Sequence record: MK373782.1
Length of the DNA: 64,000 bases
Source: Escherichia phage vB_EcoM_KAW3E185
Direction: 5' to 3' (one strand)
The position numbers were made by a program, and so were the translations under genes. Below, in pieces: positions 7,189 to 30,202 of this stretch. Numbering within the stretch: the first letter of the stretch is position 1; each line of letters begins with the position of its first letter. Below the pieces are notes generated by a model. That model saw nothing but the letters and a program-made list of their open reading frames with translations, was not told the DNA's origin and did no database searches.

Positions 7189-8204
7189 TGTGTTGCCTCA
7201 ATATAAAGTTCGTTGGAATATTTGACCAGCGCTTCTCTGTCTTCGTCTGAGATATCTGGAATCGCGTCAATATATTCTTTAATGATATCTTGAAGTGATT
7301 TAATCTCGATTTCCTGGTCATCATCAGATTCAACACTGTTATCAACTTTAGAAACCATACGAAGAGAGTGAACTACTTTTTCAAGTTCAGATTCAAACTT
7401 AGTCAACTCTGAATCAATTTCTGATACTATAACACGTACGGCTAGATTAGTATAATCAGAATAATTGATTTTGCCTTTAAACGGATAAGTGATTCGTCGA
7501 TGCCATGTTGTTTCATTAGGAATAAATTCCATACGTTCAACATCAGTGTCAAATACCCAGAATCCGCGCGGGTCGTTCTCATCGCCTGCAGTAAGGGTCC
7601 ATGGTGTCCCAATATATTTGACGTTAGCAGCTTCAGAGATTGTGTGGAAGTGGCCGGACCAGACTTGTTTATAGGTCTTTAAGAAATCAGGTTCAAGCCC
7701 ATGAGACTTCATTCCTTTATAGAAATAAAAGCCATTCAGTTCCCAGTGCCCAACACAATACGCTGCGGAAGAAGTCTTGATGTGCTCTAAGATTTCACCT
7801 GTATTTTCTTCACACATCCATGGAACGATATCAATCAGACATCCGTCAAAATCTACAGTAGTTGGATGTTCGTAAATAGTAAAGTTTTCAAATTGAGTTA
7901 ACAATTCAGAAACAGTGTTAGGTGTTATTGTATTCTTAAACGCCATGTCATGGTTTCCTATCGTGACATGAACGTGAATGCCTGCTTTAGAAATCATATC
8001 AACGATTTCACGATTGAATTCCATTGTACGATGTGTTATTGCTTTACGGACGTCAAACCAATCACCATACTGAATCCAAGTTTTAATCCCGTGTTTCTTA
8101 GAGTATTCAATTGCTTGACGAATACCATCACGTTGAATATCTTGAACCCATGGGTCGTCTTGTTTGACTCCGATATGGAAGTCGCCTAAGTGCAAAATTT
8201 TCAT
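7185..8204 (-). CDS. 47: recombination endonuclease subunit gp47 (SbcD/Mre11-like, 339 aa)
   Basis: Calcineurin-like phosphoesterase motifs (LHLGDFH near N-terminus, GNHD, GHWE, GHFH); length matches T4 gp47. Confidence 0.9.
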   Translation of the reverse strand: MKILHLGDFHIGVKQDDPWVQDIQRDGIRQAIEYSKKHGIKTWIQYGDWFDVRKAITHRTMEFNREIVDMISKAGIHVHVTIGNHDMAFKNTITPNTVSELLTQFENFTIYEHPTTVDFDGCLIDIVPWMCEENTGEILEHIKTSSAAYCVGHWELNGFYFYKGMKSHGLEPDFLKTYKQVWSGHFHTISEAANVKYIGTPWTLTAGDENDPRGFWVFDTDVERMEFIPNETTWHRRITYPFKGKINYSDYTNLAVRVIVSEIDSELTKFESELEKVVHSLRMVSKVDNSVESDDDQEIEIKSLQDIIKEYIDAIPDISDEDREALVKYSNELYIEATQ

Positions 8205-8250
8205 ATTATTTCCTCATTAGTTAATTCATTTTATCATCCGTTTATAAAGC

Positions 8251-8274
8251 AAAAAAGGAACTCCGAAGAGTTCC
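8251..8274 (-). terminator. rho-independent terminator (minus-strand RNA)
   Basis: Hairpin GGAACTC-ttcg-GAGTTCC followed on the minus-strand RNA by a run of six U (plus-strand A-run 8251-8256). Confidence 0.5.
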
Positions 8275-8447
8275 TATCCACATAGTACACCGTACAGAGG
8301 CTCATTTGAACTTTTAAATCGAATGGGCTTGTATGTAATAGTTCCTTCGGCTTTAGCTTTATCATAAGACTCTTTAAAACGTCTCATTCTTTCTGCTTTG
8401 CCTTTACGGATTTTATCGAAATTTTCAGAAGTCGGGATGTTCGTCAT
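8274..8447 (-). CDS. hypothetical protein (57 aa), 47.1 position
   Basis: ATG at 8447 preceded by GAGAGGTG; below the 60-aa ORF-track threshold; stop codon abuts the terminator hairpin. Confidence 0.4.
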   Translation of the reverse strand: MTNIPTSENFDKIRKGKAERMRRFKESYDKAKAEGTITYKPIRFKSSNEPLYGVLCG

Positions 8448-8486
8448 GCATAAGCACCTCTCAGAAAATGCCTAAATCAATTTCTC

Positions 8487-8693
8487 TCATCGTTTCCACC
8501 ATTTCTTAACTTGAAATGAATCGACCCACACGAGTTGTTTTGGGTCTGCCTTTACAATAGGCGGACAAATTTCTGTAATAGAACCGTCGTGATATTCCTT
8601 TTCAGAAATTTTAACACAAAGAGGACCTCCCAATTTAAGGGTGAACCCTGCGTTCAGCTTCAGACGTTTAAACTTTGTTTGAACTAGCGCCAT
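8487..8693 (-). CDS. hypothetical protein (68 aa)
   Basis: ORF 8487..8708 starts at TTG; first ATG at 8693. Confidence 0.4.
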   Translation of the reverse strand: MALVQTKFKRLKLNAGFTLKLGGPLCVKISEKEYHDGSITEICPPIVKADPKQLVWVDSFQVKKWWKR

Positions 8694-13190: not shown

Positions 13191-13661
13191 TTAATCATGT
13201 TTCCACACCCCATCGGTATTTGACCAAAGTCGCTGATTATCTGATCCTCGCCACAGCTTTTTAGTCGGAAGATTTTTCTCATACTTCCCATCAATAATAA
13301 CATCAACATATTTAAGCATTTCTAGTTGTTTAATATCTTCAAACTTATATCCTGTCCACAACCAAATGCTTTTATTGGGATAAAGATTTTTTACTGTTTG
13401 AGCAATGCGATGAATAACATCTCGGTTATCAGGATAGAGAGGGTCTCCTCCGGTTATAGTTAATCCTTCTATATAATCATTATTCAAACATTCAATCAAT
13501 TGTTCTAGTGTCTCTCCAGTGAATGGAATACCATTTCTAGCATTCCATGTTGATTTATTATAACACCCTTCACATTTATGCAAACAACCTGTAACGAAAA
13601 GAACGACCCTGCATCCAGGGCCATTCACAAAGCAGCACGGGTATATTCTGTCATAATTCAT
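13191..13661 (-). CDS. nrdG: anaerobic ribonucleotide reductase activating protein NrdG (156 aa)
   Basis: Radical-SAM-type cysteine cluster CLHKCEGC; ATG at 13661 gives MNYDRIYPCCFVNGPGCRVV and the T4 NrdG length; start overlaps the upstream stop (ATGA). Confidence 0.9.
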   Translation of the reverse strand: MNYDRIYPCCFVNGPGCRVVLFVTGCLHKCEGCYNKSTWNARNGIPFTGETLEQLIECLNNDYIEGLTITGGDPLYPDNRDVIHRIAQTVKNLYPNKSIWLWTGYKFEDIKQLEMLKYVDVIIDGKYEKNLPTKKLWRGSDNQRLWSNTDGVWKHD

Positions 13662-14488
13662 AATAATATCCAATTTTTCCAAGCTTCATCAGTAGAATTA
13701 CAGCGTTTTAGTATAAGATGTCTAGAAACTTTTATGGCATTTGAGCACTTTTTAATTGAATCATACTTAATACCGTCAACTGAAACGGTTTTGCTAGTTG
13801 GAGAAATTTTTCCATACATTGGATTTTTTGAACCAACTTGAAGTCCTTTTAAAGCTTTTGAAAGCTTTTGTCTAGATTCCAATGACATGGGAGAATTCTT
13901 TTTACCTTCAATAATTCGCTTGCGATGAAGTTCGCGTTCTTCTTCACTCAAAGAATTGTAATATTTTTTAACACCGTTTGATATAGATAATTTATCTTTC
14001 TCAGACCGCTCTCCAGCTAATTTACTTCTAACATCTTTTCGCTTCATAGCTATGCTTACGGCTTTATTTAAATTTGCTTGATGCTCTGGCGTACGTTTAT
14101 ATTTCTTTAAAGCACGTGAAATAGCTATTTTAGTTTCTTCTGTTCTCTTTTTACCTTTATTTGCTAAACTATTTTTGCGGCGATGTTCAAGTGTCTGTTC
14201 ATAGGCAGTTCCACCTTTTCCACCAGGTTTAATATTATATGTATTTTCTTTTAGACAATACTCTTCGGTTACGAGTTCAGCTTCTTTATCATACATTTGC
14301 TTTTCATTATCAAAAACATATAAAATTTCTTTATAAAAATTTTTTCTACCATATTTTAATAAAGCAGCACGAATCAATGTTCCTGATCCCATATAACCGT
14401 CATTTATGTTATCGGTGCTATGCGCACCGATATATTCCTTTGAATTAATTATATTTGTTATTTTATAAATTATATAATACCTATGCAT
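13658..14488 (-). CDS. free-standing GIY-YIG homing endonuclease (276 aa)
   Basis: N-terminal motif YYIIYKITNIINSKEYIGAHS (GIY...YIG); basic C-terminal repeats typical of Seg/I-TevI DNA-binding regions. Confidence 0.8.
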   Translation of the reverse strand: MHRYYIIYKITNIINSKEYIGAHSTDNINDGYMGSGTLIRAALLKYGRKNFYKEILYVFDNEKQMYDKEAELVTEEYCLKENTYNIKPGGKGGTAYEQTLEHRRKNSLANKGKKRTEETKIAISRALKKYKRTPEHQANLNKAVSIAMKRKDVRSKLAGERSEKDKLSISNGVKKYYNSLSEEERELHRKRIIEGKKNSPMSLESRQKLSKALKGLQVGSKNPMYGKISPTSKTVSVDGIKYDSIKKCSNAIKVSRHLILKRCNSTDEAWKNWILL

Positions 14489-15760
14489 GTTTTACTCGTT
14501 TTACCATTTCTTTCATTTTACCTAAATTCCATGGGACAACGCTAGGAGTTCCAAGATATCCGCATGTTCTTCTTATGGTATTCATCTTTTTAGGATCAGT
14601 TTCTCCACAAATAGAACAAACAAATCCGTTTTCAGTAGGAGTCATTTCATGGGTACTTCCACATGTAAAACATTTATCCACTGGCATATTAACACCAAAA
14701 TAATCTAAATGTTGTGCAGCATAATCCCAGACGGCCTCAAGCCCCTTTAAATTGTTTTTCATATCTGGAAGTTCAACATAAGAAATGTGACCGCCTGTCG
14801 CAATGAAATGATATGGGGCTTCGCGAGAAATCTTTTCAAACGGAGTGATATTTTCTTCTACTGAAACATGGAAACTGTTAGTGTACCATCCTTTATCGGT
14901 AACATCTTTTACACTTCCATATTTTTCAGTATCAAGTTTACAGAAGCGATAGCAAAGGTTTTCAGCAGGAGTAGAATACAAGCTAAAAGCAAAACCGGTT
15001 CTTTCGGTCCACTGCTTAAGACGAGCATTCATTTTAGTTAAAATTTCTTGTCCAATATCACGACCGACAAGAATATTCAATTCGTGAATACCGATGTATC
15101 CTAGGGACACTGAACTTCTACCGTTTTTAAATAACTCAATTATATCATCATCAGGTTTAAGACGGACCCCAAATGCACCTTCTTGGTAAAGAATAGGAGC
15201 AACAGTAGCTTTAACTCCTTTTAAGGAACTAATTCTACACATCAAGGCTTCAAAGCACAGATCCATTCGTTCATTAAATAACTCAACAAATTTCTGTTCA
15301 TTGAACTGTGTTCCAATATAAGAATCTAACGCGATGCGAGGAAGATTCAGTGTTACAACGCCAAGATTATTACGTCCATCAAGAATTTCATTACCAGTCG
15401 AATCTTTCCATACACTCAAGAAACTACGGCAGCCCATTGGAGAAACAGGAACTGAAGAACCGGTAATAGCTTTATTATTCTTAACCGAAATAATGTCAGG
15501 ATACATTCTTTTGCTTGCACATTCTAACGCAAGTTGTTTAATATCATAGTTCGGATCATCTTTATAAAGATTAACACCTTCTTCAACAAACATAACAAGT
15601 TTAGGAAAAATAGGAGTTATTCCATCACGACCAAGACCTTTAATGCGGTTTTTAAGAATTGCCTTCTGAATCATTCGTTCAGTCCAGTCAGTTCCCGTAC
15701 CAAATGTAATTGTTACAAAAGGCGTTTGTCCGTTTGAACTAAAGAGAGTATTTACTTCAT
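14481..15760 (-). CDS. nrdD: anaerobic ribonucleotide reductase NrdD, exon 2
   Basis: Encodes EVNTLFSSNGQ... to the C-terminal glycyl-radical motif RRTCGYLG; joining to exon 1 at the inferred splice sites gives 605 codons, the T4 NrdD length. Confidence 0.85.
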
Positions 15761-16805
15761 CATTATATTCAGCATGAGTCGCAAATTCATGCTCGTTTAT
15801 ATGAAACAACAAAATTTGGATAGTCCATAGATATGCAACGTTCTTTTATAGTGCTAGGATGAAAATTTAGCGCTTTAGCTGCTTCTATATAAGACGTATA
15901 CTTAATACCGTCAACAACCACATATTCAGGAACTTTATGAATAGTAGTCTTAATACTCAAAACAAGAGGATGAGTTTCGACTTCACTTTCAGTGCAATTT
16001 AAATATTCCGCTGCTTTTTTAAAACTTCTAAAAGTTTTATTTTTAAGCTTTATCGATACTTGTTTTTTACTTTTTCGACTATTGATATTATTTTGCACAT
16101 GTTCCTTAGATCTTCCGTTTTTAGCATAATATTCAGCTACAGAAGATTTTATATTGTTTTTATGAGATTCGGATAACACTTTACCCTTATGAGCATCTCT
16201 TAATTTTTGAATATGTTCTTCAGTATCCGGATGCTTATAAAACTTTTTACCGCCTATGGATTTATTTAAACATTTTTTGCTATAAAAATATTTACGTATG
16301 ACCTCTTCTTCATGTTTTAATGCATCTTTATAACTATCAAATGTTTTTAAAATTATCCATTTAGTAGGTGTATCAGTTTTTAAGCGTTCATTTATATACT
16401 TAGATGACGTTGTGTAAGTTTTCCAGTTTGTGGGCTTATTTTTAATTGTTCTAAATTTTTTATAACCGATATAAATGTCGCCATTAGAAAACTTAACTAA
16501 GTATGTAAATGCGTCTTTATCTTTTATTTTAGTACAACGTCTTTTTATCCATTTCATTGTTTCACCTCGTATTCATAAGATAATCTTATTTATACAAGAT
16601 GACTGCTGCATGTCGCCATGCAGATTAGACTATATCTTCATCTTTCGATGCCGGCCGTTTCGAATAGCATTAGCTTCTATTCTACACCGCTACATTCATC
16701 ACGGTTAGTCGTTAGGCATTTAGTTCAAAAGAACATTTAGCACGGGATTGTCTACTAGAGAGGTTCCCCGTTTAGACCGGTTTTACATGAGCCTGAATTA
16801 AATTA
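15761..16805 (-). mobile_element. group I self-splicing intron in nrdD (1045 bp)
   Basis: Minus-strand core CTAAACGGGGAACCTCTCTAGTAGACAATCCCGTGCTAAAT at 16735..16775, which I recall from T4 group I introns; 5' exon ends in U, intron ends in G; in-frame stop follows exon 1. Confidence 0.8.
15787..16557 (-). CDS. intron-encoded homing-endonuclease-like protein (256 aa)
   Basis: ATG start inside the intron's 3' extension; degenerate GIY-YIG-like N-terminus (FTYLVKFSNGDIYIGYKKF); Lys-rich with a helix-turn-helix-like C-terminus; no HNH cysteine pairs. Confidence 0.65.
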   Translation of the reverse strand: MKWIKRRCTKIKDKDAFTYLVKFSNGDIYIGYKKFRTIKNKPTNWKTYTTSSKYINERLKTDTPTKWIILKTFDSYKDALKHEEEVIRKYFYSKKCLNKSIGGKKFYKHPDTEEHIQKLRDAHKGKVLSESHKNNIKSSVAEYYAKNGRSKEHVQNNINSRKSKKQVSIKLKNKTFRSFKKAAEYLNCTESEVETHPLVLSIKTTIHKVPEYVVVDGIKYTSYIEAAKALNFHPSTIKERCISMDYPNFVVSYKRA

Positions 16806-17343
16806 ACTCATACGCCTGGAATGCGTCATAGACATCTTTTTCTGTTTTAGATTGAGCATAATTCAACGCATCAGCGATTTGCCATTTTTCTGCATCCTCA
16901 ATATGTTTTGCATAGGTGCGTTTAACATAAGGAGAAAGTACTTTATCTACATTAGCAAAAGTCGTTCCGCCGTATTGATGGGAAGCAACTTGTGCAGTAA
17001 TTTGTGCCATAATTGCAGTAGCAACACCAATAGATTTAGGCGTTTCAATTTGAGCATTGCCTAATTTAAATCCATTCTCAAGCATCCCCTTTAAATCGAC
17101 TAAACAGCAATTGGTAAACGGAAGAGCAGGAGAATAATCAATATCATGCATGTGAATGATTCCGCGTTCATGCGCATTCATAATAAAAGACGGGACCATA
17201 TTTTTGGCAATGTGTTTAGACACAATACCAGCCATAAGGTCCCGTTGAGTTGGAAAAACACGAGAATCTTTATTAGCATTCTCGTTCAAAAGATCTTTAT
17301 TAGTTTTATAAATTAATCCTTCAATTTCTTTTTCAATTTTCAT
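16806..17343 (-). CDS. nrdD: anaerobic ribonucleotide reductase NrdD, exon 1
   Basis: MKIEKEIEGLIYKTNKDLLNENANKDSRVFPTQRDLMAGIV... matches the recalled T4 NrdD N-terminus up to ...DAFQAYE. Confidence 0.85.
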
Positions 17344-29045: not shown

Positions 29046-29311
29046 TAGTATTTTTCCTCAGGTCGAAATACTGCACGACACGCCCACATGCTGGCTTCTT
29101 TTAGATGTTGCTTAGCATACTTAAGAGCCTGCACTGCATCCATATCTTCTTTGGTTTGTTGCTCTGTTTCATTTTCTTTCAAGATATATGCTTCTTCAAT
29201 CAGAGCATCAAACAACAATCCAAGACGGACTTCTGCATCTTTAATAGCGTTCACTTTACCGATTTTATCATCGGTATGCGGCTTGTAGCCTTTGATGTCT
29301 TCAATCGACAT
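29045..29311 (-). CDS. hypothetical protein (88 aa); positional candidate for vs.4 (Acb2 anti-CBASS sponge)
   Basis: ATG at 29311 preceded by GAGGAAA; size and position relative to regB fit T4 vs.4, but the sequence match is not verified. Confidence 0.4.
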   Translation of the reverse strand: MSIEDIKGYKPHTDDKIGKVNAIKDAEVRLGLLFDALIEEAYILKENETEQQTKEDMDAVQALKYAKQHLKEASMWACRAVFRPEEKY

Positions 29312-29525
29312 AAGGAATTTCCTCATCAGTGGCAAGGTCATATTCGACCAATTGGATAGGCTCATTAATACCATATCCACGTACAGTGATATCAGTTGTC
29401 GGATAGTTTCCGGTAATATCACCCATTCTAAATGCTTCAGTGAATGATTGCTCGCCTGAGCAACTAAACCAGGCGGCAAAACATTTTAAAACATCTTCAG
29501 ACCCTTCTATAATCAATTTAGCCAT
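29301..29525 (-). CDS. hypothetical protein (74 aa)
   Basis: ATG start. Confidence 0.4.
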   Translation of the reverse strand: MAKLIIEGSEDVLKCFAAWFSCSGEQSFTEAFRMGDITGNYPTTDITVRGYGINEPIQLVEYDLATDEEIPYVD

Positions 29526-29887
29526 TATAGACTCTCAGTAAAGGTGCGAGCGATAACGTCGCGCTGCTGTTCCGGAGTCAGGGAGTTAAAGCGAACTGCA
29601 TAACCAGATACACGGATGGTCAGCTGCGGATATTTTTCTGGATGCTTAACTGCATCTTCTAGAGTTTCACGACGCAGAACGTTAACGTTCAGATGTTGAC
29701 CACCTTCAATTTTAACTTTAGGGTAATGTTCAATTTCAATTTCACGGGCATGCAAACCGTAGAAAATTTCCGGGTCTACAATAGCGTCTTCTTTAAAAGT
29801 CTTAGAGACAATAATCCGGGCTTGAGTACCGTCTTCAAAATAAATAGTGCCTTTGTGTGTGCCTTCAAGAATTTGATATGCTTTCAT
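29525..29887 (-). CDS. autonomous glycyl-radical cofactor (GrcA/YfiD-like, 120 aa)
   Basis: C-terminal 60 aa ([60 protein letters not shown]) match what I recall of E. coli GrcA, including the RVSGY glycyl-radical motif. Confidence 0.85.
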
Positions 29888-29893
29888 ATAACC

Positions 29894-30202
29894 TCAATTA
29901 GAAAATAAATTTATCCAAGTTTTTTCTTTAATCAAAAATGGGTCGGAATTAAACGCCATTAAACTTTGAGTGATTAATCCCTTAAATGGCCCGTCAATAA
30001 ATTCCATTTTGAAATGTGGAATACTAGTCATCAACCGTGCATTAGGAGCAGTACAAAGAACCTGCTGCCCTGCGAACGGGCCTTTAGTCAAACGGTATCG
30101 TTTAGGTTTAAAATGGTAAATCTCGTAATTTTCTACAAGGGCCCTTTTATTGCATACTGGGCTGTTATAACAATATTCAAAAACTTCAATAGTGGTCATC
30201 AT
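29894..30202 (-). CDS. hypothetical protein (102 aa)
   Basis: ATG start. Confidence 0.45.
   Translation of the reverse strand: MMTTIEVFEYCYNSPVCNKRALVENYEIYHFKPKRYRLTKGPFAGQQVLCTAPNARLMTSIPHFKMEFIDGPFKGLITQSLMAFNSDPFLIKEKTWINLFSN

Follow-up and report, generated by a model that had tools for sequence, protein, structure and literature searches.

The gene vs.6 of Escherichia phage vB_EcoM_KAW3E185 (sequence record MK373782.1), which lies on the minus strand of the 64,000-nucleotide (nt) stretch of DNA analysed here (the window), is a mosaic: its 5′ half and its last ~22 nt are phage DNA, and the 163 nt between them derive from an Escherichia grcA gene (Table 1). The window itself comes from a T-even-type coliphage, and the gene is the ortholog of T4 vs.6, the gene for Y06I; the two proteins are identical at 113 of 120 residues and the order vs.7-vs.6-vs.5 is kept. 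The gene is thus one more copy of T4 vs.6, and its function, by orthology with T4 that of a spare part for the O2-damaged pyruvate formate-lyase (PFL) of the host, is already known. The new point is the host-copied DNA of the radical-carrying half, and it is this DNA structure of an otherwise ordinary gene that merits attention: a strictly lytic phage that modifies its cytosine and shreds the host chromosome nevertheless carries ~160 nt that are 97–100% identical to a chromosomal gene. In the full-text literature that we searched, papers on T4 genomics included, we found no description of the mosaic; older key literature lies outside that search, and prior notice is possible.

Structure of the gene

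Aligned at the nucleotide level with Escherichia coli grcA, vs.6 has a sharp breakpoint at codon 60/61. The maximum chi-square test places it at aligned nt 151 (χ2 = 91, a value reached by 0 of 2,000 permutations), with 49% identity before the breakpoint and 95% after it. The 5′ half has 34% amino acid identity and 30% third-position identity to grcA, the latter about the level of chance, with synonymous sites saturated. Among phages, this half is under purifying selection (0.216 nonsynonymous substitutions per site, dN, and 1.88 synonymous substitutions per site, dS, in comparison with Klebsiella phage pKp20; dN/dS ~0.11). The tract that follows is 96.9% identical to E. coli grcA; all five mismatches are synonymous, and four of them are G/C to A/T changes. 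Over the whole of residues 61–120 there are nine DNA differences, again all synonymous, and the 3′ tail holds 4 of the 10 differences from E. coli grcA.

A 185-nt segment matches all 5,426 complete E. coli genomes in BLAST searches, at up to 95.1% identity. When the whole window was compared with the same genomes (megablast, in three pieces), the only match was 29517–29709, and the 10,839 matching places are exactly the count obtained from the 185-nt tract alone. Host homologs exist for the nrdD and nrdG genes of the window also, yet neither gives a DNA-level match to any of the 5,426 genomes.

The left edge of the tract is identical in all Tevenvirinae examined and falls just past an ATT (Ile) codon that is GTT in bacteria; the invariant protein stretch, and hence the DNA homology, starts at this point. 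The right edge falls 10–22 nt before the stop codon, and beyond it each phage group has its own tail. Slopekvirus 05F ends with the same GAG AGT CTA TAA as the window gene, and other tails are common within phage genera. Read directly, the tail of the window gene contains a GAGAG Shine–Dalgarno-like run and a TAATG stop/start overlap with vs.5, and in pKp20 the annotation places the downstream gene's ribosome-binding site within the vs.6 tail. We suggest that the tract cannot extend leftwards because homology stops at codon 60/61, and cannot extend rightwards because homology stops at the stop codon and the tail bears the translation start signals of vs.5. The converted segment coincides almost exactly with the structured domain of YfiD (the E. 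coli GrcA protein) that inserts into PFL.

Source of the tract

Over a core of 147 nt (tract positions 4–150), identity to E. coli grcA is 100% in phages T2 and OES_C-2, 99.3% in T4 and 96.6% in the window; the best non-Escherichia bacterium reaches 90–92%. Over the 186 nt of the segment, identity is 94.6% for the window, 97.8% for T4 and 97.3% for T2; BLAST gives 99.5% for OES_C-2. Such values are not due to constraint on the protein, because genes that encode the identical protein do not attain them. Twelve of the bacterial species sampled share the 61-residue C-terminal sequence of E. coli exactly, and the 11 of these that are not Escherichia have only 84–92% DNA identity to E. coli in the segment; Cronobacter phage leB, again with the identical C-terminal protein, has 83.9%. 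The dS between the window and E. coli in the segment is 0.23, and that between E. coli and other bacteria is 0.39 (Citrobacter), 0.58 (Klebsiella pneumoniae) and 0.98 (Salmonella).

Between bacterial species, the halves of host grcA have concordant dS, and we therefore regard the host allele as native and the transfer as having run from host to phage. The opposite direction, phage to host, was considered and ruled out by this concordance of the 5′ and 3′ halves. We also conclude that the donor was grcA and not pflB, because DNA identity is 95% to the former and 77% to the 3′ end of the latter; tdcE, likewise rejected as a donor, has only ~74% identity.

With the E. coli tract as BLAST query, 638 phage records match at 95% identity or more, and Klebsiella phages score 86–88%. 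The Salmonella grcA tract gave no phage match above 90% in the reciprocal search of the phage collection. T-even-type isolates propagated on Yersinia or Citrobacter retain the E. coli tract, so the tract marks the history of the lineage and not the host of isolation.

The 5′ allele of the window is common to Shigella phage JK45 and three Mosigvirus phages (JK42, mar007P3 and moskry), with 1–4 differences in 177 nt. The synonymous tract positions at which these phages depart from E. coli are 17, 50, 71, 104, 128 and 164 in the window and JK45; 17, 50, 71 and 137 in JK42; 29, 71, 87 and 149 in mar007P3; and 29, 95 and 137 in moskry. Against two of the three Mosigvirus phages, divergence of the window's tract is roughly threefold that of the flanking 615 nt (p ~0.02), a pattern suggestive of patchy tract turnover within this allele family. 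NCBI classifies JK45 as a Tequatrovirus, and the vs.5-vs.6-vs.7 allele (window 29300–30100 compared) is found at 98% identity in Mosigvirus also; T4 and T2 differ by 11% in the 5′ half of vs.6. The vs.5-vs.6-vs.7 segment seems to have moved between genera.

An exact 41-nt pattern of the window's variants has one match in the JGI metagenomes, in a phage context. This pattern search makes OCHD01000040.1 (170,927 bp) the only metagenome contig with the private variants of the window. Over the stretch from 161258 to the contig end at 170927, the sequence is phage through vs.7 and most of vs.6 (7577–7939 within the stretch) and then becomes E. coli grcA, the grcA terminator and eamB (7995–8582) up to the end of the contig. 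Its tract states match those of JK42, and the join lies inside the shared tract, in ~38 identical nt. The contig would be compatible with transfer from host grcA to phage; it may be a genuine recombinant molecule or a chimera that arose in assembly through the repeat.

Tracts in other phages

Klebsiella phage pKp20 belongs to Jiaodavirus, a sister genus within the Tevenvirinae; the 5′ half of its gene is clearly homologous to that of the window, with 71% nucleotide identity, and the neighbours are the same. Its tract is 96.0% (BLAST) or 98.0% (core) identical to grcA of K. pneumoniae, against 92% for K. aerogenes and 87% for E. coli. There are 22 informative positions in the segment, those at which grcA of E. 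coli and of K. pneumoniae differ. The genes of five coliphages carry the E. coli state at 21–22 of these, and pKp20 carries the Klebsiella state at 18, in one contiguous run that reverts at both ends. With the K. pneumoniae tract as query, 106 phage records match at 95–99% and coliphages at 85–88%; among the matches listed, all those at 95% or more are Klebsiella phages. E. coli and Klebsiella GrcA differ by two residues in the radical domain, and the phages of each host match their own host at these. Between the Jiaodaviruses pKp20 and pzk-kv6-1 there is 1 difference in the 177 positions of the gene's 5′ part, against 12 in the 186 of its 3′ part (p = 0.003). The two tracts indicate different donors; a donor for that of pzk-kv6-1 was not found, the best match being 91–92%.

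We conclude that the radical domain has undergone gene conversion from host to phage more than once, separately in the phages of E. coli and of Klebsiella. We further consider it probable that T-even-type phages have, in the 3′ half of vs.6, a standing hot spot of such conversion, where ~150–180 nt are repeatedly overwritten by the grcA allele of the current host, independently in Escherichia (Tequatrovirus and Mosigvirus) and Klebsiella (Jiaodavirus) phages, so that the spare part stays matched, even at synonymous sites, to the host whose PflB and PflA it has to fit.

Other homologs show further patterns. Those of the Krischvirus phages TB34 and KFS-EC have 138 residues (coding sequence 292–708 of the stretches examined), with a 10-residue insertion near the N-terminus; the N-terminal parts of the two are identical and the C-terminal domains strongly different, that of TB34 being far more host-like at the protein level. 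This may represent an older or partial conversion. The T5-like phages pork29, Sepoy and KPP2018 (Demerecviridae) have a GrcA homolog just after tRNA-Met (coding sequence 301–669 of the stretches examined). It has the phage-type MKAYQ N-terminus in common with the T4-like phages and is without host-like DNA (70–74% identity), which suggests that both groups have the gene from a shared phage lineage and that the T5-like phages have had no recent conversion from the host. On the bacterial side, grcA of Klebsiella aerogenes NCTC10006 (LR134122.1; 200–590 of the stretch examined) is annotated as truncated (324 nt) and runs out of frame inside the radical domain; the frame break is probably a sequencing indel of the assembly, not a real pseudogene. 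Several PLSDB ‘plasmid’ records with grcA are chromosome-sized.

Identity and function of the protein

The best match of the protein in an HMMER search of the PDB aligns residues 21–120 with residues 27–127 of E. coli GrcA (6owr; E = 4.8e-42). The next best is the C-terminus of PflB, where residues 56–120 align with 695–759 (E = 2.6e-26) and the radical domain is 80% identical. In Pfam, residues 57–101 match positions 62–106 of the 106-position Gly_radical profile (PF01228, 1.2e-18). The protein has the small stand-alone architecture of the GrcA/YfiD family, in which a region of ~60 N-terminal residues precedes a C-terminal glycyl-radical domain. An earlier note on this DNA, made from the letters alone, described the C-terminal 60 residues as nearly identical to GrcA; they are in fact fully identical (residues 61–120 of the phage protein, 68–127 of GrcA), and residue 60 is Ile where GrcA has Val. 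The RVSGY motif named in that note is indeed kept: G95 aligns to G102 of GrcA and G734 of PflB, and the motif is invariant across the 17 phage and bacterial sequences aligned. The N-terminal half is, as the note had it, divergent, and it is homologous to that of GrcA (17 of 50 aligned residues, or 34%, identical). Where the note fell short was in treating the C-terminal resemblance to the host, which is real, as a matter of protein only; the DNA of the host gene itself is nearly identical in the tract, and the evolutionary interpretation thereby changes from simple conservation to sequence derived from the host.

The same note mentioned a T4 homolog that acts as a spare glycyl-radical domain for oxygen-damaged PFL, and this agrees with the published record on Y06I so far as it is relayed in a later paper. 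According to that account (PMC8683613) of Wagner et al. 2001 (BBRC 285:456), the PFL-activating enzyme (PFL-AE) introduces a glycyl radical into both Y06I and YfiD, and in work of the same Knappe group both proteins restore activity to PFL that has been cleaved by O2 at Gly734. Residues 61–127 of YfiD fold like PFL 693–759 and bear the radical, and the disordered residues 1–60 are required if YfiD is to bind cleaved PFL and be activated efficiently; no spare-part proteins other than YfiD and Y06I have so far been validated (PMC8683613). In T4-like genomes, vs.6 was kept in 6 of 6 examined by Nolan et al. 2006, who proposed, on the basis of the shared Gly_radical domain, a part in nucleotide metabolism (PMC1524935).

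Compared with T4 Vs.6/Y06I, the window protein has the same length and neighbours and the same mosaic DNA, and all amino acid differences but one are N-terminal; the six N-terminal ones are, from window to T4, T21I, A35S, I36F, H54P, Y55Q and K57T. The T4 gene differs in that its core is closer to grcA (99.3% against 96.6%) and its 3′ tail is another one. E. coli GrcA (YfiD, 6owr, TIGR04365/IPR011140) is likewise a stand-alone protein with a radical Gly and has the N-terminal ARxIVxK, ED and RE motifs of the window protein. It is, however, seven residues longer and is encoded as a monocistron between ung and eamB, whereas vs.6 is a lytic phage gene in a translationally coupled cluster. The C-terminal domain of PflB (PDB 1h16 and others) has the same radical loop, but the window protein is not part of a catalytic barrel. 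The partners of the window protein are presumably those of GrcA, namely PflA and O2-cleaved PflB.

Model

We think it likely that vs.6 encodes a phage copy of GrcA/YfiD, the ortholog of Y06I, which serves O2-cut PflB and has been built as a mosaic by conversion with host grcA. Extrapolating from the T4 and E. coli proteins, in an infected cell that is fermenting or micro-oxic, host PflA would abstract hydrogen from Gly95 of the phage protein. Residues ~61–120 would then replace the C-terminal radical domain of PflB that O2 has cut off at Gly734, and the conversion of pyruvate to acetyl-CoA and formate would be restored while host gene expression is shut off. Because the phage shuts off that expression, the host could presumably not resupply GrcA or PflB, and the phage would need a copy of its own. 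The formate could also serve as reductant for phage NrdD, since formate is the reductant of the characterised class III ribonucleotide reductases (T4 NrdD is discussed in PMC4493059). In Aeromonas phage PX29 the vs.6 homolog (301–678 of the stretch examined) shares an overlap with the end of nrdG, and nrdC and nrdH come after it, so that it is placed in an anaerobic nucleotide-reduction cluster instead of the vs region; this placement hints at a functional link of vs.6 to NrdD, possibly via formate.

At the DNA level, constraint on the protein would keep the segment close enough to host grcA to allow homologous recombination, and recombination between phage DNA and fragments of the host chromosome would overwrite it with the host allele. 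From general knowledge of T4, its very active recombination system might use such fragments as donors. Each conversion would reset the divergence and ease the next, so that the process could be self-reinforcing.

Several observations count against this model, or against parts of it. No bacterial donor with the private variants of the window was found in a bacterial sample that included one non-coli Escherichia, and the closest of the 5,426 E. coli genomes is 95.1% identical. With five core mismatches, the tract of the window is the most diverged among the coliphage tracts sampled. The G/C to A/T bias at four of the five core differences fits drift towards the base composition of the phage since an older conversion; equally, the donor could have been an unsampled Escherichia relative. 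In the third Mosigvirus comparison, with JK42, the excess divergence of the tract is not significant. The protein scores 157.7 bits against the GrcA equivalog model TIGR04365 of NCBIfam, under the trusted cut-off of 170, because its N-terminal half is divergent and seven residues shorter; GrcA is by far its best-scoring family despite this. T4-type phages degrade the DNA of the host and carry modified cytosine, which should limit exchange with the chromosome, though not abolish it. Finally, to our knowledge no in vivo benefit of vs.6 to any phage has been demonstrated.

Alternative explanations

A single ancient capture of host grcA followed by vertical descent, with the DNA identity of the 3′ half reflecting extreme constraint on protein and codons, seems to us very unlikely. 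The C-terminal domain is certainly under very strong purifying selection, many of its columns being invariant across phages and bacteria; E. coli grcA has a biased codon set; and long vertical descent does occur, as the T5-like phages, the Aeromonas phages and Karamvirus are without host-like DNA. The identical-protein controls, leB included, nevertheless fall well short of the 97–99.5% of T2, T4 and OES_C-2. A capture before the split of E. coli and Klebsiella would require a phage–host dS of at least 0.58, and the observed values are 0.05–0.27; such a capture with co-divergence is excluded, because the phage–host distance is smaller than the host–host distance. Nor does vertical descent sit well with sister genera that bear the species-specific synonymous states of their own hosts, with phage tracts that nest inside individual host species, or with two Jiaodaviruses whose 5′ halves are 99.4% identical and whose tracts differ at 6.5% of positions. 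We can almost dismiss the further idea that the host-like tract stems from contamination or from chimeric assembly of reads from phage and E. coli. Assemblers can be misled by the repeat, and OCHD01000040.1 joins phage and E. coli exactly inside the tract. In the window, however, the tract lies within an intact open reading frame (ORF) with phage sequence on both sides and differs from every E. coli genome at five private synonymous positions; above all, 638 independently sequenced phage genomes have it at 95% or more, the T4 reference among them, and this number of independent genomes effectively refutes an artefact.

Two other alternatives concern the role of the protein. It might serve the anaerobic ribonucleotide reductase of the phage, as a spare NrdD radical domain or as a substrate of NrdG, instead of host PFL. 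The suggestion of Nolan et al. (PMC1524935), the PX29 gene order and the presence of nrdD and nrdG in the window point this way, but we judge it very unlikely: the radical domain is identical to that of GrcA and 80% identical to the C-terminus of PflB, not to NrdD; the tract was copied from host grcA itself; vs.6 lies ~12 kb away from nrdD and nrdG in the window; and T4 Y06I is reported, in work relayed by PMC8683613, to function with PFL and PFL-AE. A supply of formate to NrdD is compatible with the model preferred here. The protein might, on the other hand, be a decoy or modulator that redirects pyruvate flux, either by competition with host GrcA or PflB over the activase or by occupation of PFL, and does not repair PFL. 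YfiD's N-terminal half governs binding to cleaved PFL and the efficiency of activation (PMC8683613), and that of the phage protein is only ~34% identical to the host's, is conserved among phages and has an MKAYQ start in common with the T5-like phages. The radical glycine and the entire catalytic loop are kept identical to those of the host, something that a pure inhibitor would not require, and the T4 ortholog is reported, again through PMC8683613, to reconstitute catalytic activity; we regard the decoy as highly improbable.

Comparison with cyanophages and significance

The mosaic resembles that of psbA and psbD of cyanophages, host-like auxiliary metabolic genes with intragenic recombination between host and phage (Sullivan et al. 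2006, PMC1484495). Like vs.6, psbA is a host-type metabolic gene of a T4-like phage that keeps a damage-prone host enzyme running during infection and has mosaic segments exchanged with those of host alleles. In vs.6, unlike psbA, only the part encoding the inserted domain is exchanged, the tract reaches up to 100% host identity, and the exchange takes place in coliphages that contain hydroxymethylcytosine and destroy host DNA.

The gene offers a tractable case for asking how often virulent phages recombine with the host chromosome, what minimal homology is needed, and whether the matching is adaptive or a neutral side effect. In practice, the length and exactness of the tract suffice to give hybrid phage/host contigs when metagenomes are assembled, and the tract is a potential marker of the reservoir host of T-even-type phages. 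If the hot-spot interpretation is true, vs.6 would be a natural and easily assayed reporter of recombination between virulent phages and the chromosome and would record the long-term host of a phage lineage.

Genomic context

The setting of vs.6 is that of the T4 tk-vs-regB-vs.x-denV-ipII/III-e cluster, an early region; RegB, Vs, Tk, DenV and e are encoded in the vicinity. An 801-nt query that spans the gene is 99.8% identical to Shigella phage JK45 in a BLAST search of phage records; 793 records match it with near-identical DNA, 638 of them over at least 80% of its length, and tblastn finds a vs.6 homolog in 1,588 phage records, among them T4-like, T5-like and Aeromonas phages. The PHROGs family phrog_1209 matches the full length of the protein (residues 1–120, 3.1e-62); PHROGs files it under ‘unknown function’ although the protein has been characterised biochemically. 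Matching records name the gene vs.6 in some cases, and RefSeq (JK45) has autonomous glycyl radical cofactor GrcA; other GenBank labels vary between pyruvate formate-lyase, acetyltransferase-related and hypothetical. A consensus scan for a promoter or terminator belonging to vs.6 found nothing above shuffle expectation (6 promoter-like sites, 6.7 in shuffled sequence), so transcription of the gene, as a member of the vs cluster, probably starts from an upstream promoter. An ORF on the opposite strand (29693–29908, +, 71 amino acids) was rejected as spurious, being contained in an oppositely oriented gene of strong homology.

Table 1. Features of vs.6, its neighbours and the nrdG/nrdD region (window coordinates)
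Feature	Coordinates	Strand	Details and basis
vs.6 / GrcA-like coding sequence	29525–29887	−	120 amino acids; ATG 29887–29885, TAA 29527–29525 (ORF list)
Phage-type 5′ half of vs.6	29710–29887	−	GC content 0.37; comparison with E. coli grcA
Host-derived tract, 163 nt	29547–29709	−	E61 to ~R113, the structured glycyl-radical domain; grcA alignment, BLAST
Phage-type 3′ tail, last 22 nt	29525–29546	−	CAC CTT TAC TGA GAG TCT ATA A (gene orientation)
RVSGY glycyl-radical motif, codons 92–96	29600–29614	−	G95 codon 29603–29605; alignment
Shine–Dalgarno GAGG	29892–29895	−	4 nt before the vs.6 ATG; overlaps the vs.7 TGA (29896–29894)
vs.5 homolog	29301–29525	−	phrog_1986; labelled Vs.5 in related phages; start overlaps the vs.6 stop
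vs.7 homolog	29894–30202	−	phrog_2049; labelled Vs.7 in T2, T4 and mar007P3; directly upstream of vs.6
nrdG, radical S-adenosylmethionine (SAM) activase of anaerobic ribonucleotide reductase	13191–13682	−	Pfam Fer4_12 2.1e-48, Radical_SAM 5.6e-8
nrdD, two coding parts	16798–17343 + 14481–15812	−	NRDD profile 1–141 and 145–562; second part Gly_radical 5.7e-25
GIY-YIG/NUMOD1 endonuclease ORF splitting nrdD	15787–16557	−	SegE_GIY-YIG and NUMOD1 matches
Second putative homing-endonuclease ORF, 276 amino acids	13658–14488	−	NUMOD3 3.3e-8; weak match to I-TevI DNA-binding domain

The earlier note had counted three glycyl-radical functions in this phage, with nrdD and nrdG as the other two. Both genes are present; NrdG, however, is a radical-SAM activase, so that the count becomes two glycyl-radical proteins and one activase. 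That vs.6 is an adaptation to anaerobic growth may reasonably be inferred. The nrdD gene is split by an endonuclease ORF, an arrangement which we take to resemble the T4 nrdD intron with its homing endonuclease; no Rfam match to a group I intron was obtained in the nrdD gap at the gathering threshold. The second putative homing-endonuclease ORF is situated between nrdD and nrdG, with an overlap of 25 nt with the start of the latter.

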